From: a virus | Taxonomy: Duplodnaviria; Heunggongvirae; Uroviricota; Caudoviricetes | Length of the DNA: 16,744 nucleotides | IMG/VR virus record: IMGVR_UViG_2617270976_000015 | Location: 1-16,744 of that record | Direction: 5' to 3' (one strand) | Shown here: positions 2,974-16,744 of the stretch, piece after piece | How the letters are laid out: the number at the start of each line of letters is the position of its first letter | Position numbering within the stretch: the stretch's first letter is position 1 | Notes under the pieces: generated by a model | What the model saw: only the letters and a program-made list of their open reading frames with translations | What the model was told of the DNA's origin: nothing | Database searches by the model: none | Position numbers and translations under genes: made by a program

Positions 2974-2988
2974 TAATCAGGAGGAGTC

Positions 2989-3528: not shown

Positions 3529-3566
3529 TCGATGTTAGTAACTTCAATCCTATAATTCTTGAAGAT

Positions 3567-3599
3567 AAAAAACCCTCTGTAGTAACAGAGGGTTTTGTT
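3567..3599. terminator. bidirectional rho-independent terminator at the host/prophage junction
   Basis: Perfect 8-bp stem CCCTCTGT (3573-3580) / ACAGAGGG (3585-3592) with 4-nt loop, flanked by an A-run (3567-3572) and TTTTGTT (3593-3599). Confidence 0.75.
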
Positions 3600-3745
3600 C
3601 ATTCATAGTGCAGGGTCAAATCATTCCCACTCAATTATTTACGATAACCATAACCAATTGAGTGATAACATTTTTCCAAATCTCAATTTTTCCCGTACCG
3701 TTTTATATACCGTCACCGGAAATCAGTACCGTGAAAAATGCCATG

Positions 3746-4228
3746 CTATCTGGTCAGGGTGTCGTACTGTTTTTCGCAGACTCTTCCGGCTTCGGATGCC
3801 CGGTCAGCATACTCTGCCAGTTGTCTATTTCTCTCGAGAGATTTGCTGAACACGTCGGAAAGCAAAACTCCGGTGTCTGCGGCTGACGACCCAGCGCCGA
3901 CAATGGCGTTATAGTGCCTGAGCTGCTCACGGATGGCAACGAGCTGTTGCTGCAACCGGCCAGCGCGAGCGGCAGCATCAAGAGCATCATTGCGCGCCTG
4001 GTCGATCCTCTGCTGCGCTTCACGTTCATTAGTCACTTTCTCCTGTTCGTAGTGCTGACGAACTATCTCATCTTCAGCTTTGCGGTCTTTCTTCGCCTGC
4101 GCATACCCGGCATCGTACTGACGACTGCCGTGTGCATTCCAGGCTACAACTCCTGATATGACCAGAACAGCAAGCATCGCCATGATAACCAACTGTTTCC
4201 AGTATGCTTTTGCGAATGCCCAGATCAT
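3746..4228 (-). CDS. Rz-like i-spanin
   Basis: N-terminal TM helix followed by a charged coiled-coil body; directly after the endolysin gene (start ATG overlaps the endolysin stop at 4225-4228); contains the embedded Rz1-like ORF. Confidence 0.7.
3754..4029 (-). CDS. Rz1-like o-spanin lipoprotein embedded in the +1 frame of Rz
   Basis: Track ORF lies entirely inside Rz in another frame; signal peptide with lipobox LALAGCS and a Pro/Ser-rich mature part. The true start may be the internal Met at about 3990. Confidence 0.6.
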   Translation of the reverse strand: MNVKRSRGSTRRAMMLLMLPLALAGCSNSSLPSVSSSGTITPLSALGRQPQTPEFCFPTCSANLSREIDNWQSMLTGHPKPEESAKNSTTP

Positions 4229-4854
4229 ACCGCCAGCACCTTACTGGCAGTGATGTACCGCGCGCGCCGGTCGTCGATGCCGTTCCGGCCACCATTGATA
4301 ATCAGAGTTACACGTGCAATATCGCCGGTATACTTCATGCATCCTTTGCTGGCGAAGAACCACGCCGCGCTACGAGCCGCATATTCGTCCTGCGCCAGCA
4401 GTTCAGGGCTCTCCAGCAGGTCAACCTTCAGGCCGTTTCCGCAATCACGATAGTTATTCAAACCGGTAATCTGGATAAGTCCGCGCCCTCGGTAATTCCA
4501 GCCATCACCAGGGGCATTGTTCCCCATGCGTTTGCTGTACACCAGATTGGCGATCGCACGCTGGCGCTCCAGAGGCAGAGACTTCTCATATGCTTTTCGT
4601 CCCAGCGTGCTGGCCTGGTCCGGCGTGATGCGTCCGGCACGGATAAACCCGGACAGTCCATTAACGCTGTAGTTGAAGTTTTCCTGTAACCGGGTAAATC
4701 CTCCGGACTCATGCCCGACCTGCGCGATAAACATCGCCTGGTCATCTGGTTTGATAATGCCAAACTCATTCATGGCAGCAGTGATATGCAGAAACCAGCG
4801 TGCGGCCAGCGCCTCGCTAATACCAGCAGCTCGCTGGAATTGTTTAATCTCCAT
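4225..4854 (-). CDS. endolysin, glycoside hydrolase family 19 (class I chitinase-like) type
   Basis: Start chosen at the internal ATG 4854 ([20 protein letters not shown]...) with GAGGT upstream; the longer track ORF (to 5019) would overlap the upstream gene. Motif [22 protein letters not shown] is recalled as the GH19 phage-lysin signature. Confidence 0.8.
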
Positions 4855-5152
4855 GTTTAGACCTCGATACTTTGAAAATTTGAACGACGTTACCGCGCGT
4901 TTTAATAACCGCAGCGAGCATGACAGCGTTGATAATGACCTCAGATAAATCCACAGCCATTGGCGTGCGTAACCAGATTGCATAGGCGACACGAACAGGA
5001 ATACTGGCCGCAGCAACAATCAGGAAATAAGCAAGCCACCCTCCCCATCTTCGGTGTTGTGACCCGTTACGCCGGAATGTGACAACGCGAATTGCTATGC
5101 CAGTACAAATAACTGCATTGGTGATAAGAAAAAAAAGCTCATACGTTGCCAT
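4844..5152 (-). CDS. holin-like / lysis-associated membrane protein (about 3 TM)
   Basis: 102-aa hydrophobic protein; GGGAGA RBS; start overlaps the upstream holin stop and its stop overlaps the endolysin start (translational coupling typical of lysis cassettes). Confidence 0.55.
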
Positions 5153-5543
5153 CGTCTTTTCTCCCCGGAATTAACTCACGTGGATTATCGGAACGGTGAT
5201 AGAGCCAGATGCCAATTCGTACTGCGACGATTGCTGACACGAATGCGCCAGCAGAGAAAACAACCCCTTTCTCGAAAGAGTCCTGCGTGATAGTAGGGAT
5301 CAGGCTAGCTACGCCTATAAGAATTGATGCTGCTGGTTTGTAGAAAAGAAGCCCACAGAGAAAGCTAAGCATCGACAAGAGTACGCGACGACTAATTGGG
5401 TACTCCACCGCAGAGGTAACAAAAATCACCGCTCCTGACAAAGACCCCAACGCTACTTCTGGAGGTACTCCTGCTATCACCGCAGCTAGAGAACCAAGAC
5501 TAAGCCATTGATTTAATGTTTCACTGGTTAGTTGAACTGACAT
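5139..5543 (-). CDS. holin-like membrane protein with possible dual start (GTG 5552 / ATG 5543)
   Basis: 3-4 predicted TM helices; first gene of the lysis cassette; N-terminus M-V-S-M gives two in-frame starts as in dual-start holin/antiholin genes; GGTGG upstream of ATG 5543. Confidence 0.6.
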   Translation of the reverse strand: MSVQLTSETLNQWLSLGSLAAVIAGVPPEVALGSLSGAVIFVTSAVEYPISRRVLLSMLSFLCGLLFYKPAASILIGVASLIPTITQDSFEKGVVFSAGAFVSAIVAVRIGIWLYHRSDNPRELIPGRKDDGNV

Positions 5544-5958
5544 AGAAACCACCGTTTACTGTGCATAAAGACCCACCTTAGTTGGTGAGTCCATCATACA
5601 CAATTAATACATATATGGTTTAATTGAAATCCCCAAAAACATTCTGAATAGGTGAGGTGTTTTCTGGCTCCATAGCTATGACGTGGCTTTTGATGCCTAA
5701 CTTTATAAGGTGCCACGACAATGTGATAGGTACATAGGATTCAGTTACCAATGCAAAGCTTTGTGTGTCTCAGTTTTGTCTCATGCCAACCCAGTAGAAT
5801 CAATCTACTTAATCTCTCTGCAGTGAATATTTTGTTTGCACGCAATTGCACATGATGAACTGGCGCTTATGATAATTTCTGACGGTGATCTGATGGGAGT
5901 GAAAGTGCGGCTATCTGATGATACAATGCTCTTCAAAATAAACAGTTAGGTGATTTTT

Positions 5959-7002
5959 ATGTTGGTCAAAGATGCGCTAAAAAGGGATAACAATAACCTT
6001 GACTTAATACGTATTTTTTGTGCAATTTCTGTAATATTTGCCCATTCATATTATCTTGCAAATTCTGATGGAGCCCAGGAGCCGGTTCAGTCTGTTTTCA
6101 CATTTACATATACTGGTTCCATTGCTGTAAAAATATTTTTCTTTATTAGCGGAATGCTTGTAACTAATAGTTTATTAACAACGCGAAACATACCACACTT
6201 TATTTCATCTAGATTTTTTAGAATATTCCCCGCATTCATTTTTGTTTTATTATTCGCGACATTCATTGTTGGACCATTACTTACAACGCATTCAATGACA
6301 TCTTATTTAAAAGATACGCTGACGTACAGCTATCTATTTAAAAGCTCATATTTGGATATGCAATTTTTTCTTCCTGGTGTTTTTGAGGAAAATATATATA
6401 AAAGCTCAGTTAATGGTTCTTTATGGACAATACCATATGAAGTTGCATCTTATGTCGTGCTCCTAGCATGCTACATGATAACTCAGAGCAGAGGAAGAAT
6501 AATGCCTAGCATCATATGCTTATCAATAATAGCGCTTCCAGTATTGGGATGGAACAAATTAATTTTTATAAATAACGATAATGCAGATGTGTTTTTAATG
6601 GCTCCATGCTTTGCTCTTGGCGCATTGTATGCTATAAACAAGGACAAAATATACATTTCACTACATGCACCAATAGGATTTGCAATATTATATAATTTTG
6701 TGTCAGAACCAACACTCAAGCATATGCTTTTTTATTTTTGCGCATGTACATTTTTCGTATATTTATCAACAACAAAAATAATAAAATCAATAAGAATAAA
6801 ACATGATGTATCATATGGCGTTTACTTGTGGGGCTTTTTAATACAGCAGATAACATTCAGGTTATTACCTGATATAAATCTGTACTTAAATCAAGTTTTA
6901 TGCATAGCACTATCACTTATTGCTGGACTGATATCATTTATTGCGATAGAAAAACCAGCAATGGATATTGGGAAAAAGATATCAAACAAATTCAGATATT
7001 AG
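5959..7002 (+). CDS. acyltransferase family 3 integral membrane protein (Oac/OafA-like O-antigen acetyltransferase, membrane domain only)
   Basis: ATG 5959 with AGGTGA 7 nt upstream (track ORF starts at GTG 5950). About 10 TM helices; N-terminal RIFCAISVIFAHS resembles the conserved Arg/His motif of AT3 acyltransferases. Extremely AT-rich codon usage, which looks horizontally acquired. Confidence 0.75.
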   Translation: MLVKDALKRDNNNLDLIRIFCAISVIFAHSYYLANSDGAQEPVQSVFTFTYTGSIAVKIFFFISGMLVTNSLLTTRNIPHFISSRFFRIFPAFIFVLLFATFIVGPLLTTHSMTSYLKDTLTYSYLFKSSYLDMQFFLPGVFEENIYKSSVNGSLWTIPYEVASYVVLLACYMITQSRGRIMPSIICLSIIALPVLGWNKLIFINNDNADVFLMAPCFALGALYAINKDKIYISLHAPIGFAILYNFVSEPTLKHMLFYFCACTFFVYLSTTKIIKSIRIKHDVSYGVYLWGFLIQQITFRLLPDINLYLNQVLCIALSLIAGLISFIAIEKPAMDIGKKISNKFRY

Positions 7003-7004
7003 AT

Positions 7005-7030
7005 AAAAAGGGGCTTTCAGCCCCTTTTTT
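7005..7030. terminator. bidirectional rho-independent terminator between the convergent acyltransferase and beta-helix genes
   Basis: AAAAAGGGGCT-TTC-AGCCCCTTTTTTTT: GC stem 7010-7015 / 7019-7024 flanked by an A-run and a T-run. Confidence 0.8.
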
Positions 7031-8014
7031 TTACGTGGTAGTTGCGGATACCTTCCATTCACCAGTTGATACGTATGTCCACTTCCACGGTCCGGTAGAA
7101 ACCGGACCAAGCAATTCCCACTTGGTGCCAAACGGGAAATTAGTTGTATCTCCCGTGGGTGGTGATACTGATAGAACCGTTATATATCCTGACTCAAGTC
7201 TGCATAATGCAGTCCATGATGAGTTTCCGGTTATACTATAGGTGCCGCCTGAATCAACCTTGTTGATCCAGCTCTGCCCACTCCCCCATCTAATAGAATC
7301 AGTGGTGTTGTCGGGAATTACCGCACCATTAAAATTTGCAGTTGCATCATTAAGATATATGTATTTGCTAGATGAGACTCCAGAGTAACCAGAAAAATGA
7401 GATGAAACCAATGAGATGAAACACGATTCCAGAGATACAGCTTCAACTCCTCCATCATGATGATTAACCACTCTAAATGCAGTTACGTTAATTCGACTAC
7501 CATTTATATCAAATATTTTACCAGTGCCTTCTTCGCTTCCGCATCCAGATAGATTTACTCCAGTACAATCTTTAAATTTATAGCCAGTACCATTAACGAA
7601 GTCAGCAGCCAAACAAGTCAGGCTGCTATATGTAATGTTATTAAAATCATATGCAACACCTGAACATGTTTTCACATAAATATTCTTTAAATTATATGTG
7701 GTTCCACCTGCTTCGATTTTAACTCCAGTAACGACATCCTGAATAGTAATGTTTTCCCATGTCTGCAACCAGCTATCACTAGTGCGATAACCGGTTTTCA
7801 CCCTATGAATATACAGGTCCTGAAGGCGCACATTGTAACTGATAGCGCTATATATCCCGTAATCACAAGGATTGGGCGCAGTATTTAGAATACTCAATCC
7901 AATTATTCTGGTGCTTCTTGTTTGTTTCCCGCTTAAATCACCTGATGTGTCACTATCCATATCTACCGCAACAATAAAGTCTTTGGAGAAGCTGTGTGGT
8001 ACACCCTGCCACAT
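7031..8014 (-). CDS. right-handed beta-helix (pectate-lyase-fold) protein resembling a tailspike/depolymerase receptor-binding domain; possibly a remnant
   Basis: Ser/Thr/Gly/Asn-rich sequence with repetitive short beta-strand motifs (for example NLKNIYVKTCSGVAYDFNNITYSS, GTGKIFDINGSRINV). No signal peptide, weak RBS; its frame is open for only 17 codons upstream of the Met and overlaps the upstream ORF. Confidence 0.45.
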   Translation of the reverse strand: MWQGVPHSFSKDFIVAVDMDSDTSGDLSGKQTRSTRIIGLSILNTAPNPCDYGIYSAISYNVRLQDLYIHRVKTGYRTSDSWLQTWENITIQDVVTGVKIEAGGTTYNLKNIYVKTCSGVAYDFNNITYSSLTCLAADFVNGTGYKFKDCTGVNLSGCGSEEGTGKIFDINGSRINVTAFRVVNHHDGGVEAVSLESCFISLVSSHFSGYSGVSSSKYIYLNDATANFNGAVIPDNTTDSIRWGSGQSWINKVDSGGTYSITGNSSWTALCRLESGYITVLSVSPPTGDTTNFPFGTKWELLGPVSTGPWKWTYVSTGEWKVSATTT

Positions 8015-8382
8015 GCGATCCGGAACGGTTTTAATATCGTTACGCGCTGTTTTGCAGCATCCAGTTCAATCGACAATTTTTCCAACTGCTCTTTATGCTT
8101 TTTATATTCCTGATATGCGTGCCAGGACTGACCTTTGCGCACACTATCAGTAATATCAGTAATCTGTTCTGGTGTTAGCGTGGTCAGTGGCTGTGCTGGG
8201 AAAATCAGCACTTTCCCGGAATCCCAATCAAAACCAGCGTGAATTGACTGAACCTCAACTGAGGGTGTTGAACCAATGCTGCCAGGCGAATAAACAACGA
8301 TCGTTACATCCATATCGCGACGATGGCTGTGGTTGTTGGACAAAATACGATTCACCAACTCAGAAAATTTGGAGAATTTCAT
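7963..8382 (-). CDS. hypothetical phage protein (139 aa) with C-terminal coiled-coil; may be the N-terminal part of a frameshifted tailspike-like gene
   Basis: ORF with ATG at 8382; 52-nt overlap in a different frame with the beta-helix ORF. No motif I recognise. Confidence 0.4.
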   Translation of the reverse strand: MKFSKFSELVNRILSNNHSHRRDMDVTIVVYSPGSIGSTPSVEVQSIHAGFDWDSGKVLIFPAQPLTTLTPEQITDITDSVRKGQSWHAYQEYKKHKEQLEKLSIELDAAKQRVTILKPFRIACGRVYHTASPKTLLLR

Positions 8383-8390
8383 GCGGAGCC

Positions 8391-8801
8391 TCAGTATGTA
8401 AAATAGACAGTTGCCACGCCGTTATAGTGATCAAACGATACGGCATTTACTTCATAGCTGGCGGGGAGCTTCGATCCGAGAACGTATCCGGGCCACTTTT
8501 TCCATGGAATTTCTCTGCGCTCACTATCGCCATATACCGTACATCCCAGTGAGCCTACAGCTTCACCAGAACGTGTGCCGCACGTTATGAATCCAAGATT
8601 TTGCTTACTGGCCTTAATAGCGATCGATGGAGTACTAACCGATGCATTGGCTGCTCTATTCGCCTGTTGGCTTGCAATAGCTGCGGAATTAGCAGCTGCA
8701 ACAGCAGCAGTGGTCGCGGCGGTAGAGGCAACAATAGCTGCTGAAGCATGCACTTGTTGGATATTCACCAACAATGCCGCCACAAAAATCATCTTCTTCA
8801 C
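8391..8801 (-). CDS. secreted protein of unknown function (signal peptide, Ala-rich linker, C-terminal domain with two Cys)
   Basis: GTG start at 8801 with AAGGAG 7 nt upstream, overlapping the upstream stop (GTGA). N-terminus MKKMIFVAALLVNIQQVHA looks like a Sec signal peptide. Confidence 0.55.
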   Translation of the reverse strand: MKKMIFVAALLVNIQQVHASAAIVASTAATTAAVAAANSAAIASQQANRAANASVSTPSIAIKASKQNLGFITCGTRSGEAVGSLGCTVYGDSERREIPWKKWPGYVLGSKLPASYEVNAVSFDHYNGVATVYFTY

Positions 8802-9442
8802 TTGTCAGCTCCTTTGCGAATCTGTTCCGCCCATTCTTCAAGGGATTTCTCCGCATATTCACCGGACAGGCCATCAATCGGGTGCGGTTCATTAGCCAAC
8901 TCTTCTTTCGCTGACAGAATCATGCGCGTAACGTCGAAAACTTCACGTAAAGACTTATTGATAAATCCGTGATTGAACGCAGCAGCAAGACGGCTTGCGG
9001 TATAGTTAATCCCCTCGTTGCGAGCCTCCGCCCGAATTTCAGCCGTGAAGGCGTCGGTTGCTGACATAGACAGTGCTGATTTAGCATCAAACATGAGCGA
9101 CGCTGCGGGATTGATTGACTTCTCCTCTGGAGAAATACCGCTCATTGCAAATTGGTTTATCATGCGTTCAACCACTTCACGCAATGCCGCATTCTCCGCC
9201 GCCAGCGCCGAAAACTTCTCGTGTGCCAACTTAACAGCTGCATCAGCCTGCTTAATTGACTCAATCGCTTTCTGCTGGTCTTCGGCCATCGCATTAGCAC
9301 GCACCAGTTGCACTTCCAGTTGCGTTGCCAAATCGCTGATCAGCTTTGCCACACTGCGCATATCAACGGCACCACATTCTGCTTTCAGTTCCGAAGCCAT
9401 CTCATGCCCGGCGGCAACTAACCCTTTGATATTACTTTCCAT
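8798..9442 (-). CDS. hypothetical cytoplasmic helical protein (214 aa), nin-position gene
   Basis: ATG 9442 with GAGGG RBS; predicted helical with Ala/Glu/Lys-rich coiled-coil-like segments; no Cys-rich zinc-finger as in lambda Q. Confidence 0.5.
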   Translation of the reverse strand: MESNIKGLVAAGHEMASELKAECGAVDMRSVAKLISDLATQLEVQLVRANAMAEDQQKAIESIKQADAAVKLAHEKFSALAAENAALREVVERMINQFAMSGISPEEKSINPAASLMFDAKSALSMSATDAFTAEIRAEARNEGINYTASRLAAAFNHGFINKSLREVFDVTRMILSAKEELANEPHPIDGLSGEYAEKSLEEWAEQIRKGADK

Positions 9443-9503
9443 CTTTACCCTCGCTTATCCACATAACTTATTGATTGCATTGATAACTAAAAAGATCGTC
9501 GAT

Positions 9504-9848
9504 TCAGAACTCTTCGATGTTCCAGCCACCACCTGCTTTCTTTGGTTTAACCGTTACCCCGATGATTCGGAACGGATACTGATCTGCGGCGACTTTGGTT
9601 TTCACCCTGGCGTCGTCGGTCCAGAAACCTTTCACTTCGTGCAGTTCCATCTCGCCGGTGGCGAGCATCACAGCAAAATCGGGCGTATAGAACGTGTTGT
9701 CAGCTAACCGCAGCTTGATACCCTCAAATCGATACCAGACGATTTCTCCTGCACGTTTACGCAACTCAAGGTGCTGGCAATACGCAGATTCTGTTTTGTT
9801 CATCTGGCCTGTTTTGAGTCGACCAAGAGCCTGTATCTGTTTTCTCAT
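9504..9848 (-). CDS. small PD-(D/E)XK-motif protein (DUF1064-like), putative nuclease
   Basis: ATG 9848; motifs YTPDFAV and ELHEVKG fit a PD...(D/E)xK nuclease core; position just after the replication genes. Family name is from memory. Confidence 0.5.
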   Translation of the reverse strand: MRKQIQALGRLKTGQMNKTESAYCQHLELRKRAGEIVWYRFEGIKLRLADNTFYTPDFAVMLATGEMELHEVKGFWTDDARVKTKVAADQYPFRIIGVTVKPKKAGGGWNIEEF

Positions 9849-9851
9849 AAT

Positions 9852-9929
9852 TTACCCCTGAGGTAATTAAAAACCACATAAGACACGAAATCAATATGGT
9901 TTAGAATATTTTGTTACCCAGCAGGTAAC
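9852..9929 (-). promoter_or_regulatory. operator-promoter-operator unit: two TTACC-N5-GGTAA palindromes (9852-9866, 9913-9929) flanking a leftward -35 TTGATT / -10 TTTAAT
   Basis: Both palindromes match the operator consensus found at the repressor gene perfectly; their centres are 62 bp apart, the same spacing as the pL-like pair at 12957-13033. The -35/-10 reading is approximate. Confidence 0.5.
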
Positions 9930-9965
9930 TATCAAGGCGTAAAAAAATGCGCTATCGCGCTGGTA

Positions 9966-10766
9966 TTACTTGATAAATCCTGCCGCCTTTCCCCGCCTGT
10001 ATTCCTCCATCAGCCACTGTGCCGGTGTTATTCCCCCCAATGTGGCGGCGTTAGGCATACACCCGAAACTTCGCCCTGGTGGATGGTAAACGTCTCTCCC
10101 TGTGTCCGGAGGCGTACTCATGGGTTCTGGCTTTGCCTGTATGCTGATCACCGGATCGGGTATCTGCTGTCCGGAAGCTACCTTTTTCGCCCAATCATCG
10201 AGCAGCCTGCGCGCGTGTTTCTCAACCTCAATCTCGCTAAACTGGCGCTGATACATTGCACGGCGGGTATCACATACGACCCAGTACATAACCGGATGTC
10301 GCCACGGGAATCTTTCGGGACCACCAGGATATAAACTTTTTTCCTTGCTGTACCGGTGAAACTCCGCCATCACATCGTCAATGGTGACGCCAAGAACCAT
10401 CTTGCTGTCTTTACACCACTTGATGAATTGCCCTGGCGACGGCCAGAACGGAGATTCACTGGCGCGGGCGTGGCGCATACCAGCAGAAACCTGTTCACGG
10501 GTTCGGATCCCCCCTTCGGCAAACGCAGCAATCCACTGCTGTTTTGCAGCAACTTCCTGCTCTGGAGTCTTCAGGTTGGTTACTACTGCCGCCGGAAACA
10601 GTTGTTTCAGCTGTTTGAAAAGGGCATCAACAAGCCTCTCTGCTGACATGTTCACCACATTGTCATTGTTGACGTACTGATGCTCATAACCTGACATGCG
10701 AGAAAGGGCTTCTCCGTCACGGTTTTGTATCGCGGTAAAAACGTTGTTCACAAGAAATCCTCCCAC
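9966..10766 (-). CDS. lambda P-like replication protein (DnaB helicase loader)
   Basis: Conserved block WIAAFAEGGIRTREQVSAGMRHARASESPFWPSPGQFIKWC parallels lambda P (…NGITTMEQVNAGMRVARRQNRPFLPSPGQFVAWC) as I recall it. Start taken as the GTG at 10766, overlapping the O-like stop; the start is uncertain. Confidence 0.8.
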   Translation of the reverse strand: MGGFLVNNVFTAIQNRDGEALSRMSGYEHQYVNNDNVVNMSAERLVDALFKQLKQLFPAAVVTNLKTPEQEVAAKQQWIAAFAEGGIRTREQVSAGMRHARASESPFWPSPGQFIKWCKDSKMVLGVTIDDVMAEFHRYSKEKSLYPGGPERFPWRHPVMYWVVCDTRRAMYQRQFSEIEVEKHARRLLDDWAKKVASGQQIPDPVISIQAKPEPMSTPPDTGRDVYHPPGRSFGCMPNAATLGGITPAQWLMEEYRRGKAAGFIK

Positions 10767-11563
10767 GCTTCAGGGCTGTTCCAGTGCGGAACGTTGTTAT
10801 CAGGTAATGTTGATTGCTTCTGTCTGCTAATCTGCAGCCGCCTTGCCAGCTTCTGCTCCCACTGTGCCTGATGGTATGCCTTACCCTCAGCCATCCAGTA
10901 AATTCTGAACTCTGCAAGCTCCTGTGCCGTTGGCAGACTGTCCAGGTAGATCCCCTGCAATGAGCTTTTCCGAAGAAAGTCATCTGATGGCTGCCATTGT
11001 TCATGCATGACAAATTTGCCTAATTGCCCTGGCCCACCAGGAGGAACAAAGTTATTCATCACGGCGTTGTTTGCGCCGGGGTCATGAGGCACAGAATCCC
11101 CGCTTTTTGTCCTGCTCTCCCTCTCTTGGTTAAATGACTGGTTATATGACTGGTTCTGGATCCCGTTTTTGGGATCATTCAACATCCCGTTTTTGGGATC
11201 ATTCAACATCCCGTTTTTGGGTATATTCCCGTTTTCGGTAACATTACCGTTTTCGGGTTCATTACCCCCTTCCCGGTTGCCTTTAATGTTTCCGTTTTTG
11301 GTTATATTAAGAGAGAAAACCCGCACTCTTTTCGTCGCACCCTTTCTCTCTCCGGTATCTGAAATAAGCCCCATTTTCATGAGCGATATAAGCCCGGCCT
11401 GCACGGTTTTTTTATTCAGGCAAGTGTCTTTAACGAGGCGTTCTATGCTGGGGTAGCAGAGGTTATATTCATCGGCTCTGTCAGCCATCGAGAGCAGTAT
11501 GAGCTTTAATGACGAGCTACCTGGATCTGTCTCCCAGGCCCAATCTGTTGCATGTCTGCTCAT
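10748..11563 (-). CDS. lambda O-like replication initiator (N-terminal HTH domain, internal repeat/iteron-encoding linker, C-terminal domain)
   Basis: ATG 11563 with GGAG RBS; N-terminal LKLILLSMADRADEYNLCYPSIERLVKDTCLNKKTVQAGLISLMKMGLI looks like a helix-turn-helix; the mid-gene tandem repeats encode NGMLNDPKNGMLNDPKNG; placed directly before the P-like gene. Confidence 0.7.
   Translation of the reverse strand: MSRHATDWAWETDPGSSSLKLILLSMADRADEYNLCYPSIERLVKDTCLNKKTVQAGLISLMKMGLISDTGERKGATKRVRVFSLNITKNGNIKGNREGGNEPENGNVTENGNIPKNGMLNDPKNGMLNDPKNGIQNQSYNQSFNQERESRTKSGDSVPHDPGANNAVMNNFVPPGGPGQLGKFVMHEQWQPSDDFLRKSSLQGIYLDSLPTAQELAEFRIYWMAEGKAYHQAQWEQKLARRLQISRQKQSTLPDNNVPHWNSPEAWEDFL
11161..11308. 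repeat. array of about 7 direct repeats (18-24 bp, core CCGTTTT(T)GG) inside the O-like gene; candidate replication-origin iterons
   Basis: Two perfect 24-bp units TCCCGTTTTTGGGATCATTCAACA at 11161-11184 and 11185-11208, then degenerate units to about 11308; a 10-bp direct repeat ATGACTGGTT x2 follows at 11133-11154. Confidence 0.65.
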
Positions 11564-11578
11564 GATTAATCTCCGCTA

Positions 11579-11779
11579 TCAGCTTGAATGTTGTGGGGAG
11601 GAATTAATCATGATCTGCTTAATCTCTGCCCTGATGCGACGGTTTGATTCCATAGTGCACTCAACACAGTGTCCGTTGTAAACCCAGCGTTCACTGTCAT
11701 GTCCGTGCTTACATGGTTTTCCGGTGTAGTAGCGTTTAAGTCCGCGCTTTGCGGCATCAATACGTGTAATAATTTCCAT
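11579..11779 (-). CDS. small zinc-ribbon-like protein at the cII position
   Basis: Cys/His cluster GKPCKHGHDSERWVYNGHCVEC; stop is 15 nt upstream of the O-like start. Start ambiguous: ATG 11779 chosen; the track ORF extends to a TTG at 11842. Confidence 0.4.
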   Translation of the reverse strand: MEIITRIDAAKRGLKRYYTGKPCKHGHDSERWVYNGHCVECTMESNRRIRAEIKQIMINSSPQHSS

Positions 11780-11888
11780 GGTAAGCCCTGTTATTAGTAT
11801 TGGGATTACGGTCATTTTGTGCTGACACAAAAAAAAGATCAACCAGATTTGGTTTTTTATTACCTTTGAGGTACGAATAGATATGAAA

Positions 11889-11908
11889 AGACCGCCGGAT
11901 GGCGGTCT
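11889..11908 (-). terminator. GC-rich hairpin after the cro-like gene (tR1-position terminator candidate)
   Basis: Perfect 8-bp stem AGACCGCC / GGCGGTCT with a 4-nt loop, 22 nt after the cro-like stop; followed on the minus strand by UUUCAUAUCUAUU, a weak U-tract. Confidence 0.4.
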
Positions 11909-11929
11909 ACAGAGGGTTGTGGATGGATA

Positions 11930-12160
11930 TCATGAGTAGAAGAAGTATGCCAGTTCTGCTTTTGAGCGCAGCCATTGTCTTGTTTTACAGGCTTTAAAAA
12001 GCCCATTCATCAATACTTTACCTGGCATTTTGCGCTTACCTGTTAAGTGAGTCTGGATATAATGACTCGTCGTTCCGGCTTCCTGTGCGAAGGCTTCACG
12101 CTCATCCGGAGTAAGTGCAAGCCAGTGCTTTTTGAAATCGAAATGTCCGTTATCGCTCAT
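11930..12160 (-). CDS. Cro-like small HTH regulator
   Basis: 76-aa protein divergent from the repressor gene across a 154-bp operator region; segment EAFAQEAGTTSHYIQTHLTGKRK resembles the Cro/CI-type HTH pattern; first gene of the cro - cII-position - O - P series. Confidence 0.5.
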   Translation of the reverse strand: MSDNGHFDFKKHWLALTPDEREAFAQEAGTTSHYIQTHLTGKRKMPGKVLMNGLFKACKTRQWLRSKAELAYFFYS

Positions 12161-12314
12161 AGCTATTGCCTGATATTTATTTCAGATAATAAATATTCAC
12201 CCATAAGGTAACAAAAATCAAGGATAGTTACCTGTGGGGTGCATTTACCTATTGGGTAATATTGCTTTAAATTGAATCATCTACTGATTCATATATGAGG
12301 CGATTTTCCAGAAA
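12161..12314. promoter_or_regulatory. divergent promoter/operator region (OR-like) between the cro-like and repressor genes
   Basis: Contains TCACC-cataa-GGTAA (12197-12211), half-site GTTACC (12227-12232) and perfect TTACC-tattg-GGTAA (12245-12259); AT-rich promoter-like sequence on both strands. Confidence 0.6.
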
Positions 12315-12899
12315 ATGAAAAGTATCCAGGACGTCCGCAGGCAAAATCTCAACGACTTGATCGACCGTGAATTCAATGGTGTTCAGACGCGGATGGCTGA
12401 AAAACTTGGAACTCAGGCAAATCTGGTAAACCGCTGGGCTCTTGGCAAGAAGGTTATCGGCGACCAGGTTGCGCGAAAAATTGAAGCTGCCGCCAATAAA
12501 CCCCGTAACTGGCTTGATATCGATCGCTCGCTTTCTCAGGAAGGTTTTCAGCCTGTCGGCCCAAGCGACATTGGTCAGCTGGCGGCTCACAACCTGGAAC
12601 GCTGGATGAGCGAAAGCCGCGACCTTTCAACACAGGGAAAACTTCACCGCGCATCCGGCGTCGCCCAGGTGACAATCAGCCGCCTGTTAAACAATGAGGT
12701 CAGCGTTTCCATTTCCACCCTGGAGAATGTTGCATCTGCATTCGGGCGTCACGGATATGAACTACTGATTCACCCGCACGACCCTGCAACTATCAACTAT
12801 GACCGCTCGCGCTACGCATTGTTACCTGAAACCGAGAAAGCAAAGATCGAAAGTTACATTGAATTTGTCATCAACCAGAACGAAAAAAACAAACAATAA
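12315..12899 (+). CDS. prophage repressor (CI-like function), HTH protein without a recognisable S24 autopeptidase domain
   Basis: N-terminal HTH-like segment GVQTRMAEKLGTQANLVNRWALGKK and a second HTH-like segment ASGVAQVTISRLLNNEVSVSISTLENVASAF; divergent from the cro-like gene; flanked by the palindromic operators; I do not see the Ser/Lys motifs of LexA/CI-type C-terminal domains. Confidence 0.65.
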   Translation: MKSIQDVRRQNLNDLIDREFNGVQTRMAEKLGTQANLVNRWALGKKVIGDQVARKIEAAANKPRNWLDIDRSLSQEGFQPVGPSDIGQLAAHNLERWMSESRDLSTQGKLHRASGVAQVTISRLLNNEVSVSISTLENVASAFGRHGYELLIHPHDPATINYDRSRYALLPETEKAKIESYIEFVINQNEKNKQ

Positions 12900-12919
12900 A
12901 ATAATACTTTTCAGTAAGT

Positions 12920-12943
12920 AAGCCGCCTTCTGGTGGCTTTTTT
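12920..12943 (+). terminator. rho-independent terminator after the repressor gene
   Basis: Stem AAGCCGCC / GGTGGCTT (one G-U pair) with loop TTCT, followed by TTTTTT. Confidence 0.65.
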
Positions 12944-12956
12944 ATTGCCTATACTA

Positions 12957-13033
12957 TTACCTAATGGGTAATTTTTTTAACTCATATCTATTGACACCAA
13001 ACCAAATACGCATAATTATTACCTCAACGGTAA
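12957..13033 (+). promoter_or_regulatory. pL-like early promoter flanked by two operators (TTACC-taatg-GGTAA 12957-12971; TTACC-tcaac-GGTAA 13019-13033), -35 TTGACA at 12991-12996
   Basis: Two perfect 15-bp palindromes 62 bp apart bracketing a consensus -35 hexamer and an AT-rich -10 region, directly upstream of the first early ORF (13053). Confidence 0.6.
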
Positions 13034-13052
13034 CAGACCGAGGTAACAAGTT

Positions 13053-13205
13053 ATGCAGTGGAAAATCATCAACGGTTGGTACTGCGTTACTGCATGCGGA
13101 TTCATGAGCTGGAAGTTCCGCACCTTACAGGAAGGCATTAAGTGGGCTTTCGTCAGCAAAGAAGCTCGCGATGTGGCCAACGATAACGAGATATGGGAGG
13201 GCTGA
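13053..13205 (+). CDS. small Trp-rich protein (50 aa), first gene of the pL-like operon
   Basis: Not in the ORF track (under 60 aa). ATG 13053 with GAGGT 8 nt upstream; stop TGA immediately precedes the next gene's ATG; translation MQWKIINGWYCVTACGFMSWKFRTLQEGIKWAFVSKEARDVANDNEIWEG. Confidence 0.45.
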   Translation: MQWKIINGWYCVTACGFMSWKFRTLQEGIKWAFVSKEARDVANDNEIWEG

Positions 13206-13207
13206 TA

Positions 13208-13507
13208 ATGAACGTTAATCAGCAGAAAAATCTTCAAAAAATCATGCTGGTATTCGACAAGGACTACCGCCTGTCAGAACAGCTATATGACCGACAAGTT
13301 GAACTGATTGAGAGCATCCGACTTCATCAAATGTCCTCAACTTTTGACGCTGTAACAGGCAAAGGAGTTCGCCAGGAAGTGCTGGAGGCAGCTAAAGACA
13401 GCCCTGAGTTCGAAGAACTTATGGATGCCTACCGGCGCGAGGCAATGGCAATTATCGCCCGCTGGGATCTGGCGGATCAGCTTGATGGACAGAGGGACGC
13501 GGCATGA
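13208..13507 (+). CDS. hypothetical early protein (about 99 aa) in the position occupied by gam in lambda
   Basis: ATG 13208 with GGGAGG 8 nt upstream (track ORF starts at 13193); acidic helical protein; stop overlaps the start of the exonuclease gene (ATGA). Confidence 0.5.
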   Translation: MNVNQQKNLQKIMLVFDKDYRLSEQLYDRQVELIESIRLHQMSSTFDAVTGKGVRQEVLEAAKDSPEFEELMDAYRREAMAIIARWDLADQLDGQRDAA

Positions 13508-14325
13508 ATCCGGGAATTTATTTCGATATCAGCAACGAAGACTACCACGCCGGTGACGGCGTGAGTAAGTCGCAACTGGACATGGTTGCCAAGAATCCGG
13601 CGCTTCTTAAATGGGTTCAGGCAGCACCAGAAGACGAAGAGAAAAAGTCTGCACTGGCTATGGGAACCGCATTGCACTGTCTGCTTCTGGAGCCTGGAGA
13701 GTTCGACAAACGCTTCATTGTTTCACCGAAATTCGATCGTCGGACGAAACAAGGTAAAGCTGACGAAGAGGCATTTCTTCGTGATGTGGCGGATATGGGG
13801 ATTACGGTACTTGATGCCGAGCAGTGGCGGAAACTGGAGCTGATGCGTGATAGCGCAATAGCTCATCCGGCGGCACGCTGGATGTTGGAAGCACCTGGTT
13901 ACTGCGAAGCATCAATGTACTGGAACGATGAAGAGACGGGTGAGTTGTGCCGAATTCGTCCAGACAAATGGCTGAACGAGCACAACGTGATCGTCGACGT
14001 GAAAAAGGTTGCAGATATTGACCGTTTTGCACGCCACATCGAGGAATTCCGCTACCACGTGCAGGACGCAATGTACCGCGAAGGCGCAATGAGGGTTACT
14101 GGTCAGCCGCATGGTTTTTTCTTTCTTGCCGTGAGCGAAAGCATTGATTGTGGTCGGTATCCGGTACGCGTGTTCGAGCTGGATGCGCCAGATGTCGATG
14201 CCGGGCACGCTCTGTTCCGCCGGGATCTGAATACCTATCACGAATGCCGCATCAACGATGAATGGGGCGGAGTGGAAATTATTAAACGCCCTGACTGGGC
14301 ACGTAAACAGGATATGTACGTATGA
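13504..14325 (+). CDS. PD-(D/E)XK-family recombination exonuclease (exonuclease VIII-like / DUF3799-type), partner of the annealing protein
   Basis: Motif region RIRPDKW...IVDVKK fits a D...(D/E)xK nuclease core; translationally coupled to the downstream Bet/RecT-like gene. Does not resemble lambda Exo as I recall it. Confidence 0.6.
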   Translation: MNPGIYFDISNEDYHAGDGVSKSQLDMVAKNPALLKWVQAAPEDEEKKSALAMGTALHCLLLEPGEFDKRFIVSPKFDRRTKQGKADEEAFLRDVADMGITVLDAEQWRKLELMRDSAIAHPAARWMLEAPGYCEASMYWNDEETGELCRIRPDKWLNEHNVIVDVKKVADIDRFARHIEEFRYHVQDAMYREGAMRVTGQPHGFFFLAVSESIDCGRYPVRVFELDAPDVDAGHALFRRDLNTYHECRINDEWGGVEIIKRPDWARKQDMYV

Positions 14326-15203
14326 GCAATGATATCGCAATCACATCACAACCAGGCGCAACTGTAGGCACTGCTGCGGCAATATTCAGCCCCGAGGGCA
14401 TGAATCAACTGGTTCGTTTCGCGGAGTTGATGTCACAAAGCAAAGCGACTGTACCGAAACATCTTGAAGGCAAACCTGCCGATTGTCTGGCGGTGACCAT
14501 GCAGGCGGCACAGTGGGGAATGAACCCTTTCGCCGTGGCGCAGAAAACGCATGTGGTAAACGGAACGTTAGGCTACGAAGCACAGTTGGTAAACGCGGTC
14601 GTATCCTCTTCCAGCCTGCTAGCGACACGCCTGAATTATCGCTGGAGCGGTGACTGGTCGAATGTTAACGGCAAAACAGATAAATCACCGAATCTGACGG
14701 TAACTGTGTCAGCAGTTCTTAAAGGAGAAGCAGAACCCCGTGAGCTTACCATCAGTATGGCGCAAGCCGGAGTGCGTAACTCTCCATTGTGGGAACAGGA
14801 TCCGCGTCAGCAACTTGCCTATCTTTGCACGAAACGATGGGCTCGCCTGCACGCTCCTGATGTACTTCTCGGTGTTTACACACCAGACGAATTACAGGAA
14901 ACGGCACCGCGCGTTGAGCGAGACATTACTCCGCAAACGACCACTGCTGCGGGAATGAACAGTCTGATCAACGCTAAACCAGCGAAAAAGCCTGATGAGC
15001 AAACGCGTAAAGCGGATAGCCGTGATCCAGAAGAAATGCTGATGGCCTTTACCAGCGCAGCGATGAATTACAGCACTGTCTCCGAACTGGATAAGGCTTA
15101 CAAATACATTGCACAAAAACTTTCAGATGATGACGAACTGCTGGCAAAAGCCACCGACGTTTACAGCGTTCGTCGGGAAGAATTAAACGAAACATCTATG
15201 TAA
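14322..15203 (+). CDS. single-strand annealing protein of the Bet/RecT (Red-beta) family
   Basis: Segments ADCLAVTMQAAQWGMNPF and ETAPRVERDITPQTT parallel lambda Bet (DAQFIALLIVANQYGLNPW, TAERQPERDITPVNDET) as I recall it. Confidence 0.75.
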   Translation: MSNDIAITSQPGATVGTAAAIFSPEGMNQLVRFAELMSQSKATVPKHLEGKPADCLAVTMQAAQWGMNPFAVAQKTHVVNGTLGYEAQLVNAVVSSSSLLATRLNYRWSGDWSNVNGKTDKSPNLTVTVSAVLKGEAEPRELTISMAQAGVRNSPLWEQDPRQQLAYLCTKRWARLHAPDVLLGVYTPDELQETAPRVERDITPQTTTAAGMNSLINAKPAKKPDEQTRKADSRDPEEMLMAFTSAAMNYSTVSELDKAYKYIAQKLSDDDELLAKATDVYSVRREELNETSM

Positions 15204-15252
15204 CCACCACCGCGGCGCCACGCGCGCCGCACTGCAACCAAGAGAGGTATTT

Positions 15253-15501
15253 ATGAAAGGTGCATTAGGTAAGAAGGAACTCCTGGCGGTGGTGCCACTG
15301 TCATGGAGCACTATCGACCGTATGGAGCGCGCAGGGGAATTTCCTAAACGCTGGTATATCACCGATAAACGCTGCGCATGGAACCGTGATGAAGTTGAGC
15401 GTTGGCTTGATGAACGTCAGGCAGCAAGCCCGGCAGAGTTCCAGGGTAAAAAACCTCCTGTTCAGCAACGTGTATATCGTCCCGTGAGCAACGCGGCATG
15501 A
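15253..15501 (+). CDS. AlpA-family HTH DNA-binding protein (prophage regulatory / excisionase-like)
   Basis: 82 aa; pattern LSWSTIDRMERAGEFPKRWYITDKRCAWNRDEVERWL matches the AlpA/Xis-type winged-helix signature (STIYR...G.FP......W...EV..W); AGAGAGG RBS. Confidence 0.65.
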   Translation: MKGALGKKELLAVVPLSWSTIDRMERAGEFPKRWYITDKRCAWNRDEVERWLDERQAASPAEFQGKKPPVQQRVYRPVSNAA

Positions 15502-15610
15502 GTGTGCTGCTAAGGCACTGGAGCAAATGGTCAGGATGGTACTTATTCCTGGCCTCTGTTTCAGCATGGCTTTATCTGCTGGCATTAATTTTCAGAGAGG
15601 GTTGGATTAA

Positions 15611-15910
15611 GTGAGAAAGTTAAGCCGACTTGAAAAATATCACATGAACAAGGTTTCAATGCGCAGTCCGTCAAAGATTGTCGCCGTTACTCCTGCGGCG
15701 ATAGAGATCGAAAAACGCGCGATTGAAAGAGAGAAAAAAGGGCAGTTCCGCATTGCCGCTCACCTTTGGCTTCAGTGTATGGATGTTGCTTCTGGTGATG
15801 TTGAGCGTGCAAGGATCGCGGTTCGCAGGGACCAATGTATCACAAAAGGTAACGGCCTTCGCCGTGGCGACTATAGCGGCATAGGATGTTGTGGGGTGGT
15901 TTATGACTAA
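15611..15910 (+). CDS. PerC-like small transcriptional regulator (start uncertain: GTG 15611, ATG 15644 or ATG 15659)
   Basis: Core RIAAHLWLQCMDVASGDVERARIAVRRDQC resembles the PerC-family pattern; recollection-based. Confidence 0.4.
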   Translation: MRKLSRLEKYHMNKVSMRSPSKIVAVTPAAIEIEKRAIEREKKGQFRIAAHLWLQCMDVASGDVERARIAVRRDQCITKGNGLRRGDYSGIGCCGVVYD

Positions 15911-16553
15911 GAAATACACACTAATCTATGCAGATCCCCCCTGGGTATACCGGGACAAAGCCGCAGATGGTAATCGCGGTGCCGGTTTTAAATATCCGGT
16001 TATGAGTGTGCTGGATATCTGCCGCCTTCCTGTGTGGGATTTGGCCGATGAAAACTGTCTGTTGGCCATGTGGTGGGTGCCAACACAACCACTCGAAGCA
16101 CTAAAAGTTGTTGAAGCCTGGGGATTCCGTCTGATGACCATGAAGGGCTTCACGTGGATAAAATGTGGTAGTCGACAACCAGATAAACTGGTTATGGGTA
16201 TGGGACACATGACTCGCGGCAATAGTGAAGATTGCCTGTTTGCGGTAAAGGGAAAACTACCTACGCGCATTAATGCAGGGATCGTTCAGTCATTTACCGC
16301 ACCGCGGCTTGAGCATTCAAGAAAACCAGATATCGTTCGTGAAAAACTTGTGCAATTGTTAGGCGATGTTTCTCGCATTGAACTGTTCGCCCGCCAGTCG
16401 TCTCATGGCTTCGATGTTTGGGGTAATCAGTGCGAAGACCCGGCCGTGCAACTACACCCAGGATACGCGTTGGATATTGGCGGATTAACAAATTCATTCA
16501 GCAATGCTCCGCTGTCACCAACAGACAACCAGGGGCGGGAGCGTGCAGCATGA
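15903..16553 (+). CDS. MT-A70 family DNA N6-adenine methyltransferase
   Basis: N-terminal YADPPW (the DPPW catalytic motif) right after the ATG at 15903 (track ORF starts at GTG 15891); about 216 aa, the usual size for phage MT-A70 methylases. Confidence 0.8.
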   Translation: MTKKYTLIYADPPWVYRDKAADGNRGAGFKYPVMSVLDICRLPVWDLADENCLLAMWWVPTQPLEALKVVEAWGFRLMTMKGFTWIKCGSRQPDKLVMGMGHMTRGNSEDCLFAVKGKLPTRINAGIVQSFTAPRLEHSRKPDIVREKLVQLLGDVSRIELFARQSSHGFDVWGNQCEDPAVQLHPGYALDIGGLTNSFSNAPLSPTDNQGRERAA

Positions 16554-16744
16554 ACAGGGCATCACCAGCAGATTTAAGGAAATGCCTTGAAACTGCAAAC
16601 ATGCTTGCACACAGCGGGATCAGGTTTGTTCCTGTTCCCGCTGTCACTGATGCTGAATTTGCAACACTGTCAGCAATATTCGCAGACAAAATTGAATCAC
16701 TGGCAGCAGAAGCCGAGATGGAAGAAAATCAGCAGAATAATTAA
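16550..16744 (+). CDS. hypothetical small acidic phage protein
   Basis: ATG 16550 overlaps the methyltransferase stop (ATGA); 64 aa, ends with a TAA at the window edge; the longer track ORF from 16430 lies inside the methyltransferase gene in another frame. Confidence 0.45.
   Translation: MNRASPADLRKCLETANMLAHSGIRFVPVPAVTDAEFATLSAIFADKIESLAAEAEMEENQQNN

Follow-up and report, generated by a model that had tools for sequence, protein, structure and literature searches.

A Conserved Pair of Predicted Rep Operators Brackets a Candidate Third Early Promoter in a Defective Uetakevirus Prophage

The closest described counterpart of the locus presented here is the Rep/Ant genetic switch of phage SPC32H, reportedly characterized by Kim & Ryu in 2013 and Kim et al. 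in 2016 (PDB 5D50 and 5D4Z). The genome record of epsilon15 (AY150271.2), said to be that of Kropinski et al. 2007, labels the sequence ATTACC-N5-GGTAAT as a protein_bind feature, "repressor." With the P1 C1 operators and the mycobacteriophage L5 gp71 stoperators, one immunity repressor has many sites before and between transcription units, and later functions are therefore silenced directly. We describe here the Rep operators and candidate promoters in a window of 16,744 nucleotides, which is the whole stretch of viral DNA analyzed (positions 1 to 16,744 of IMG/VR record IMGVR_UViG_2617270976_000015).

Prophage Type and Repressor

The window holds what is left of a phiV10/TL-2011b-like (Uetakevirus) prophage, a defective remnant of ~16 kb, and is not a lambdoid phage. 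Positions 9286 to 14000 share 97% nucleotide identity with phiV10, PAS61, and phiv142-3, and the gene order matches that of Uetakevirus members, running on one arm from rep to the recET-like genes and on the other from the cro-like gene through the p42, DnaT-like, and P genes to a pair of operator sites and a resolvase-like gene. About 20 kb is deleted from the remnant, comprising a p55-like regulator, the terminase, the head and tail genes, ant, and the tailspike N terminus. The window lacks the ant, p55, terminase, capsid, and tail genes, tblastn searches of it with phiV10 p24 and SPC32H Ant gave zero matches, and the open reading frame at 7031 to 8014 is the C-terminal half only of the tailspike. 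Since ant falls within the deleted segment, the window is read as a defective Uetakevirus member. The source draft assembly and a single short contig of reads gave the only matches to the deletion junction, with none in complete E. coli genomes or phage records. No known RNA families were found in the window.

The repressor gene is as follows.

12315..12899, + strand: rep, encoding a 194-aa repressor with N-terminal DNA-binding, middle HTH_3-like, and C-terminal domains

Rep is homologous over its full length to SPC32H Rep (residues 1 to 190 matched to PDB 5D50_A, E = 4e-42; 42% identity) and is 100% identical to the repressors of ZX5 and phiV10. SPC32H Rep is described as combining DNA binding by its N-terminal domain with dimerisation through the middle domain and with tetramerisation and Ant binding through the C-terminal one. 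The NLVNRW recognition helix of its N-terminal domain is invariant (alignment A3). The initial annotation had placed the switch in a lambdoid frame, which gives way here to an SPC32H-type Rep without a peptidase domain. The locus does resemble the lambda CI system at OL and OR in its palindromic operators over divergent and leftward early promoters, its multiple sites, its oligomeric repressor, and a repressor gene transcribed in the direction of the leftward operon. Rep, however, has no S24 peptidase (autocleavage) domain, Pfam giving HTH-type domains only, and its relatives are inactivated by an antirepressor. The locus further differs from lambda in having more operator-bearing candidate promoters beyond PL and PR, and phiV10 has no annotated N- or Q-type antiterminator (none among 64 phiV10 or 52 SPC32H features, by annotation only).

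Overexpression of the ZX5 repressor abolished free phage and lowered holin and endolysin transcripts by 99.97 to 99.99% (PMC9782041), in a paper that defines no operators. Secondary accounts, PMC9986798 among them, describe Rep on DNA as a tetramer in which the N-terminal domain pairs come from different dimers.

Operator Copies and the PL, PR, and P2 Promoters

Five perfect copies of TTACC-N5-GGTAA occur in the whole window (9852-9866, 9914-9928, 12245-12259, 12957-12971, and 13019-13033) against 0.01 expected, and this number was reached in 0 of 200 shuffles. The copy at 9914-9928 has the 17-bp form GTTACC-N5-GGTAAC at 9913-9929. Together with two one-mismatch copies (11860-11874 and 12197-12211), the total with at most one mismatch is 7 against 0.29 expected, and a scan of the remainder of the window gave zero further perfect or one-mismatch sites. 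In the same shuffle test, the complete phiV10 genome has 8 sites against 0.04 expected and the SPC32H genome 10 against 0.00. The initial annotation had placed the perfect and one-mismatch palindromes correctly, as a recount confirmed; the 62-bp centre-to-centre spacing that it gave for the 9852/9914 and 12957/13019 pairs is likewise correct, and the motif is enriched over shuffled sequence in the window, phiV10, and SPC32H alike. Its "half-site" at 12227-12232 is real but is actually the left half of a full site with two mismatches at 12228-12242. The assignment of the palindrome to the repressor is supported by Rep homology, the epsilon15 annotation, and comparative data, and these sequence comparisons make TTACC-N5-GGTAA the operator of the SPC32H-type repressor, Rep, found in epsilon15/phiV10-like temperate podoviruses.

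As a covariation test, the operators at all three places were inspected in loci of Rep relatives with altered recognition helices (NLVSRW, NLISRW, and NLINRW). All carry TTACC-N5-GGTAA, and because every Rep lineage has the same half-site, the test of protein-operator covariation is uninformative.

The features around rep are as follows.

11814..11842, − strand: candidate promoter P2, TTGATC-17-CAAAAT, read from sequence and serving the p42, DnaT-like, and P genes
11860..11874, unstranded: TTACCTTTGAGGTAC, a site with one mismatch that precedes the candidate P2 −35 by 17 nt, just past the cro-like terminator
11889..11908, − strand: intrinsic terminator after the cro-like gene (−15 kcal/mol, z = −4.9)
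11930..12160, − strand: cro-like gene (PHROG 35, transcriptional repressor)
12197..12211, unstranded: OR one-mismatch site TCACCCATAAGGTAA, within the core of the rightward-equivalent promoter PR
12228..12242, unstranded: degenerate middle OR site with 2 mismatches, which includes the earlier half-site
12245..12259, unstranded: perfect OR site adjoining the rep promoter region
12920..12945, + strand: terminator after rep (−19.1 kcal/mol)
12957..12971, unstranded: PL upstream operator, perfect motif
12991..13019, + strand: PL core promoter, TTGACA-17-AATTAT, whose final −10 T also opens the downstream operator
13019..13033, unstranded: PL downstream operator, perfect motif

The 12228-12242 site lies 17 bp from the 12245 site, matching the middle OR site of epsilon15, and the P2 candidate is also found in epsilon15 and SPC32H. 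SPC32H has TTACC-N5-GGTAA sites at OL, at OR, and at the same third place as the window, with 62-bp spacing. The window differs in that its OR consists of one perfect, one one-mismatch, and one two-mismatch site, its PL has two sites rather than three, and the antirepressor gene is missing.

The Site Pair after the P-Like Gene

The third place, which we call P3, contains the following features.

9504..9848, − strand: DUF1064 gene, first of the P3 unit (PHROG 190, "Holliday junction resolvase")
9852..9866, unstranded: P3 downstream operator TTACCCCTGAGGTAA, spanning the last −10 base, the predicted start, and the DUF1064 Shine-Dalgarno sequence
9866..9871, − strand: P3 candidate −10 TTTAAT, spacer of 17, assigned from the alignment
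9889..9894, − strand: P3 candidate −35 TTGATT, inside the invariant TATTGA and 19 nt after the upstream operator, as at PL
9914..9928, unstranded: P3 upstream operator TTACCCAGCAGGTAA, with its centre 62 bp from that of the downstream operator
9941..9960, − strand: weak intrinsic terminator behind the P-like gene, GCGC-GATA-GCGC followed by seven T (−7.4 kcal/mol, z = −1.6)
9966..10766, − strand: lambda-P-like replication gene, last of the preceding unit

The pair at 9852-9866 and 9914-9928 probably brackets a third early promoter that would be shut in the lysogen, and not a late-promoter substitute. PL and P3 have a common geometry, in which an operator is followed by 19 nt, a −35, 17 nt, and a −10 whose last T opens the second operator, and this supports the leftward promoter-like core that the initial annotation had placed between the two sites. 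Against the sigma-70 hexamers, the P3 core matches at 4/6 (TTGATT) and 5/6 (TTTAAT) with a 17-nt spacer, the usual A at position 2 of the −10 is missing, and the core is not called by a consensus scan. The predicted start would leave a leader of only ~11 nt with the Shine-Dalgarno sequence at its extreme 5′ end. The gap between the operators is 47 bp, short for a protein-bridged loop. The terminator is annotated in phiV10, and its stem is kept among relatives while the loop varies. Two other candidate promoters were rejected, namely, a plus-strand AAGACA-16-TAGAAT at 9880-9907, whose TAGAAT is missing in epsilon15, SPC32H, and BUCT711, and, as the main promoter, a minus-strand TTGATA-16-CAAAAT with the upstream operator in its spacer, whose −35 is unconserved even among phiV10-type phages. 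An A-rich AAAAT block 3′ of the P3 upstream operator is conserved.

The pair had been described as unexpected. It is, however, present in all relatives examined, with identical 62-bp spacing in phiV10, TL-2011b, ZX5, Tyrion, BUCT554, epsilon15, SPC32H, Klebsiella BUCT711, and a Cronobacter prophage, and it persists though Rep identity drops to about 40%. One of its sites is already marked as repressor binding in the epsilon15 record, where the feature at 35906-35922, between replication and resolvase genes, is the orthologue of window 9914-9928; that record marks four sites only and leaves the 62-bp downstream partner, the OR sites, and the promoter unannotated. The P3 pair is thus a real and conserved element, ordinary for the Uetakevirus-type family and partly annotated before. 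The gene just downstream of it alternates among relatives between DUF1064 and RuvC-like.

In alignment A1, the invariant columns are the terminator stem and T-run, the half-sites of both operators, TATTGA, and TGG/AAT of the −10 region, and the operator spacers vary while the half-sites stay fixed. When 85 modules were placed by the terminator alone, as an unbiased anchor, the upstream site was perfect in 85/85 and the downstream site in 84/85, with spacer entropy of up to 1.6 bits. Diversifying selection on the spacers may account for this variation, but a mosaic junction carrying old polymorphism would do so equally well. Three other lineages carry, at the same place, a tandem site pair inside a TTGACA/TTGCAA-17-AATTAT/AATGAT promoter. 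In 596 Gb of species-representative genomes, the pair at exactly 62 bp was found 22 times. Fourteen of these are in Enterobacterales, most in loci with a detected Rep homologue; eight isolated pairs lie in unrelated phyla, by chance or for other reasons. These eight, and the shortness of the motif, are what might be cited for a chance recurrence of a functionless AT-rich palindrome, a reading that we give almost no credence and that is already contradicted by the shuffle tests, the positional conservation, and the invariant half-sites beside scrambled spacers. The comparative data argue strongly that the P3 pair is functional.

Rep on the pair could instead act only as a roadblock, with no promoter between the sites, blocking polymerase that arrives from PR or P2 behind the weak terminator, as stoperators do, and allowing read-through once Rep is gone. 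Such a function would suit the weakness of the terminator directly upstream, the −10 candidate without A at position 2, and the very short leader. We consider it unlikely, since the invariant TATTGA falls exactly at the PL −35 position, the −10 region is also invariant, and at this place other lineages carry sites embedded in a clear TTGACA-17-AATTAT promoter. It is decidedly unlikely that the pair serves mainly as an architectural anchor, with long-range Rep looping to OR (2.3 kb) and PL (3.1 kb) stabilising PR/PL repression, in the manner of the lambda OL-OR loop, and local control being secondary. A Rep tetramer with two DNA-binding pairs, as in the secondary accounts above, and operator clusters at fairly constant distances from rep across 80 loci are compatible with an anchor, but the pair always lies close against a promoter-like core and where the next gene starts, the sites lie inside the promoter in other lineages, and similar sites stand ahead of distant units such as the terminase and head genes.

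The initial annotation had the pair control a promoter standing in for a Q-dependent late promoter, in front of a block leading to the lysis genes, and a lysis cassette does lie ~4 kb beyond the P3 pair on the same strand. This reading is highly improbable. The lysis genes are near the P3 block because of the ~20-kb deletion, which removed the genes listed above and left only the C-terminal half of the tailspike at 7031-8014, so that the adjacency is a deletion product. The oac gene lies between the block and the lysis genes on the opposite strand, the lysis cassette comes with a conserved promoter region of its own, no Q is annotated in phiV10 or SPC32H, and the lysis genes come after the tailspike and oac genes, not after the nin-like block. 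The gene order of intact relatives already contradicts a late-promoter position: there the pair heads an early resolvase/Eae/Ead block that ends at a regulator gene ahead of the terminase, and additional Rep sites precede the terminase, head, tailspike, and lysis units.

Proposed Regulation by Rep

The sites with their statistics and conservation, the geometry common to PL and P3, and Rep homology are shown above, and from them we infer Rep binding at the P3 sites, activity of the P3 promoter, and the bridging of both sites by one tetramer. With P3 as a third early promoter, the early-right arm would consist of short units, each opening with a terminator and then its own promoter, and an antitermination system was not found. 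PR would transcribe the cro-like gene; P2, the p42, DnaT-like, and P-like genes; and P3, the DUF1064 resolvase-like gene, an Eae-like gene, and the following genes. In the lysogen, a single Rep tetramer with two DNA-binding pairs would most likely sit on both P3 sites, which are 62 bp or ~six helical turns apart. Rep at the downstream site would mask the ribosome-binding site as well as the start point and the edge of the −10, so that RNA polymerase would be excluded, and the upstream site would contribute cooperativity. Bound Rep would also halt transcripts leaking past the 9941..9960 terminator; because that terminator is weak, read-through may account for most of the expression of the downstream genes.

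More tentatively, Rep could act as gatekeeper for the whole genome instead of standing at the head of a cascade, with nearly every unit consisting of a terminator-insulated promoter and a Rep site and with late genes silenced directly, without N/Q-type antitermination; we hold this to be possible but somewhat doubtful. The units concerned may be PL, PR, P2, P3, the terminase/late operon, the head operon, the ant/tailspike region, and the lysis cassette. In the terminase unit, as at PL and P3, the last −10 T is the first operator base, and the 62-bp brackets at PL and P3 may correspond to the two DNA-binding pairs that a single Rep tetramer carries. The P1 C1 and L5 gp71 systems are alike in having one immunity repressor with sites scattered across the genome, but their proteins are unrelated to Rep and bind in a different way to sites that lack symmetry, whereas Rep sites are palindromic and often paired at 62 bp or 17-18 bp. 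A genome-wide Rep operator map had no precedent in the literature searched, the key primary papers being outside its reach.

The locus is framed correctly as an epsilon15-type Rep switch and not a lambda-type one, and its "third operator unit" is a conserved family module. The resulting map of Rep-controlled promoters PL, PR, P2, and P3 (candidate) is testable in a common prophage type and points to a way in which a repressor tetramer with two DNA-binding pairs could fit paired operators. The remnant keeps an intact rep gene and its sites and should therefore still make its host immune to phiV10-like phages, a group with uses in O157 detection and engineering. Prophages of this type are common in E. 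coli, Salmonella, Klebsiella, Citrobacter, and Cronobacter.

A phiV10-like prophage remnant

The element in the window is a prophage remnant of ~16 kb. Positions 9286-14000 share 97% identity with phiV10, vB_EcoP_PAS61, phiv142-3, and ZX5, temperate podoviruses of the genus Uetakevirus (epsilon15-like phages), and the window's plus strand is their "leftward" direction. The lysis cassette, morons, and MASE1 gene match phage TL-2011b. On the source contig, the entire prophage, about 16 kb, runs from the integrase to the lysis genes and morons and includes or adjoins the following features:

1-276, IS1 insA, at the left end of the window
327-1601, MASE1-domain membrane protein gene, cargo gene common to TL-2011b
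2455-2973, TraT/glycine-zipper lipoprotein gene, cargo gene common to TL-2011b
2989-3528, DUF5384 gene, cargo gene common to TL-2011b
minus strand, cro-like gene, p42, DnaT-like initiator, lambda-P-like gene, and DUF1064 gene
12315-12899, plus strand, rep, with the recombination operon also on the plus strand

The DUF1064 protein is grouped with Holliday junction resolvases (PHROGs). Of a 631-aa tail protein (tailspike), the open reading frame at 7031-8014 corresponds to the C-terminal half alone, and no homologue of Ant, the p55-like regulator, terminase, capsid, or tail-fibre N-terminus was found in the window. In the initial annotation, the operator pair after the P-like gene suggested a repressor-run promoter in the place of the late promoter, leading to the lysis genes. 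The lysis genes lie near the "nin-position" genes because of a deletion, and an O-acetyltransferase gene on the opposite strand sits between the two groups; both facts contradict the late-promoter reading, which we consider very improbable. The deletion junction lies near 8014-8040, where a nin-region reading frame (7963-8382) runs into the tailspike half. Apart from the source draft assembly (JNQT01000014.1), the junction turned up only in a single short read contig, and it was absent from all complete E. coli genomes and phage records searched. Within the DnaT-like initiator gene, three adjoining tandem-repeat arrays at 11127-11266 (periods of 12, 24, and 18 bp; the 24-bp unit in 2.6 copies at 100%) look like origin iterons, by analogy with the lambda O gene.

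The operator motif and its repressor

A motif search of the window recovered perfect TTACC-N5-GGTAA sites at 9852, 9914, 12245, 12957, and 13019 and one-mismatch sites at 11860 and 12197, in agreement with every operator coordinate of the initial annotation. Its "half-site" at 12227-12232 forms part of a two-mismatch full site (12228-12242), and 17 bp separate this site from the one at 12245, the spacing of two adjacent OR sites in epsilon15. The centre-to-centre distance is 62 bp both in the PL pair (12957-12971 and 13019-13033) and in the pair after the P-like gene, termed P3 (9852-9866 and 9914-9928). Enrichment over shuffled sequence, proposed earlier as a check, was clear: five perfect sites were observed versus 0.01 expected, a number reached in 0 of 200 dinucleotide-preserving shuffles, and perfect and one-mismatch sites together number 7 versus 0.29. 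Chance recurrence of the palindrome is contradicted by these statistics and by the conserved position and half-sites, leaving it next to no probability.

The initial annotation had also named motif density in unrelated sequence as a test. A search of 596 Gb of species-representative genomes gave 22 occurrences of the exact 62-bp pair, 14 of them in Enterobacterales. The other 8 are single occurrences in unrelated phyla, and no Rep lies near them. Most Enterobacterales pairs have a Rep homologue (38-75% identity) in the locus by tblastn; in the retrieved stretches, none was detected at the Klebsiella pneumoniae, Ca. Erwinia dacicola, and second Pseudocitrobacter pair loci. The cores of the Enterobacterales pairs are recognisable as PL type or P3 type, and where one retrieved stretch holds two pairs, they lie 3.0-3.3 kb apart, like those of the window. 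That the P3 pair serves as a looping anchor for OR and PL is improbable.

Domain searches of the 194-aa Rep found HTH-type domains only and no S24 peptidase domain. Rep aligns over its full length with the Salmonella phage SPC32H repressor (PDB 5D50; E = 4e-42) and is 100% identical to the phiV10 and ZX5 repressors, the latter encoded by ZX5 ORF21. Overexpression of the ZX5 repressor left no free phage and lowered holin and endolysin transcripts by 99.97-99.99%, in a study that gives no operator definition (PMC9782041). According to secondary accounts, including PMC9986798, SPC32H Rep binds DNA as a tetramer, the N-terminal domains paired on a palindrome belong to different dimers, and a tetrameric antirepressor dismantles the tetramer.

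In GenBank, the epsilon15 record (AY150271.2) gives four ATTACC-N5-GGTAAT sites the label "repressor, lysogeny", and three of these lie in the PL region. The fourth (35906-35922), between the replication and resolvase genes, is the orthologue of window 9914-9928; the epsilon15 sequence also contains the partner of this site, 62 bp downstream, as well as the OR sites, all unannotated. The third place, earlier called unexpected, was partly annotated before in epsilon15, and it is conserved in relatives. The same half-sites accompany Rep proteins down to about 40% identity (records L006, L007, L008, L090-L093, and L095-L113) in Escherichia, Salmonella, Klebsiella, Citrobacter, Cronobacter, Serratia, and other hosts. 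Sequence comparison identifies TTACC-N5-GGTAA as the predicted operator of the epsilon15/phiV10 family. The half-sites are unchanged in all Rep lineages compared, those with NLVSRW and NLISRW helices among them, and so offer no variation for a protein-operator covariation test. The Rep family seems not to have diversified in operator specificity, which bears on how heteroimmunity arises in it, if it does.

The unit after the P-like gene

The P3 pair is also found at 62 bp in phiV10, TL-2011b, ZX5, Tyrion, BUCT554, epsilon15, SPC32H, Klebsiella phage BUCT711, and a Cronobacter prophage, with Rep identity down to 42%; the first gene after it encodes DUF1064 or a RuvC-like resolvase, varying by relative. 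Columns fixed in a nine-sequence alignment include the terminator stem GCGC...GCGC with its T-run, the half-sites of both operators, an AAAAT block, TATTGA, and the TGG and AAT of the -10 region, while the operator spacers vary. Circularity was avoided by finding the module via the terminator alone in the window, the phage records, and 80 IMG/VR contigs with an identical Rep. The upstream site was perfect in 85/85 modules, at a constant offset, and the downstream site in 84/85. The third unit is real and functional-looking, a standard epsilon15/phiV10-family module that here lies in a defective prophage.

Among 68 distinct phiV10-type modules, half-site entropy was 0 to 0.01 bits. The upstream spacer (9919-9923) took 26 different 5-mers, with 1.1-1.6 bits at four of five positions; at third codon positions, the neighbouring P and DUF1064 genes had entropies of 0.10 and 0.43 bits, respectively. 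In phages with identical Rep, the 11 nt before the upstream operator (9929-9939) likewise vary much more than the synonymous sites in the genes on either side, and PL has the same pattern of fixed half-sites and variable spacer. Either diversifying selection or a mosaic junction with old polymorphism could account for this variability.

PL consists of an operator, 19 nt, TTGACA, 17 nt, and AATTAT, and its second operator starts with the T that ends the -10. P3 has an operator, 19 nt, TTGATT, 17 nt, and TTTAAT, with the same operator/-10 overlap, and a cTATTGA block is common to both. From this shared order, overlap, and block, the candidate promoter P3 is classed as a PL-type module. Its -10 is without the usual A at position 2, its predicted leader is only about 11 nt and starts at a Shine-Dalgarno sequence inside the operator, and a consensus promoter scan did not call it. 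A pure roadblock, with Rep bound to a pair that has no promoter, is unlikely, though the least so of the alternatives. Three other lineages carry two sites 18 bp apart at the same place:

L091 (3337-3369), L092 (3206-3238), and L093 (3721-3753), tandem pairs of a food-metagenome phage, a gut-metagenome prophage, and a Serratia prophage

These tandem pairs sit within an unambiguous promoter (TTGACA/TTGCAA-17-AATTAT/AATGAT), one site in the spacer and the other at -10/+1. They support P3 as a promoter and are an alternative solution to the 62-bp bracket.

Terminators divide the early-right arm, strong after the cro-like gene (-15 kcal/mol) and weak after P (-7.4 kcal/mol), and each unit would have its own promoter: PR, P2, or P3. 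The PR core contains the 12197 site; the imperfect 11860 site lies 17 nt upstream of the -35 of the P2 candidate (TTGATC-17-CAAAAT, 11842-11814); and the P3 candidate is flanked by two perfect sites. One Rep tetramer most likely fills both P3 sites; it would keep polymerase off the -10 and the start site and would also halt leak-through from upstream.

Sites before late units of intact relatives

In phiV10 and SPC32H, further perfect or one-mismatch sites precede the terminase small-subunit gene, head operon, and lysis cassette, and others lie in the ant/tailspike intergenic region and near int:

phiV10: 87-101, 3252-3266, 20497-20511, 20877-20891, 24692-24706, 26870-26884
SPC32H: 12-26, 3175-3189, 20013-20027, 24782-24796, 26960-26974

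Ant is probably LexA-controlled; the one feature pointing to this here is a CTGT-N8-ACAG box adjoining ant in both phages. The phiV10 terminase small-subunit site reads TGgTACTAT followed directly by TACCACAACGGTAA, an extended -10 abutting the operator. These positions suggest direct repressor control of late units in intact relatives. The earlier proposal that the repressor acts directly on late transcription could be right for the family, though the sites concerned were deleted from the window. The lysis-cassette site (window 5641-5655, minus strand) is degenerate, TCACCTATTCAGAAT versus TCACCTATCGGGTAA in phiV10, and the lysis promoter retains its extended -10 region (TGTGTATGAT in the window, TGTGTATAAT in phiV10).

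An ATRTGGTT box is repeated in promoter regions, on the transcribed strand, and phiV10 has 7 copies versus 2.9 expected; positions in phiV10 and the window are as follows:

phiV10: 3311, 20924, 24742, 33138, 35119
window: 9872-9879 (minus strand), 5613-5620

The box may be a site for a phage activator, e.g., the p55-like regulator (PHROG 536). In the head and tail-fibre promoters, ATRTGGTT is followed after 5 nt by GGTAAT(A/G)AAT.
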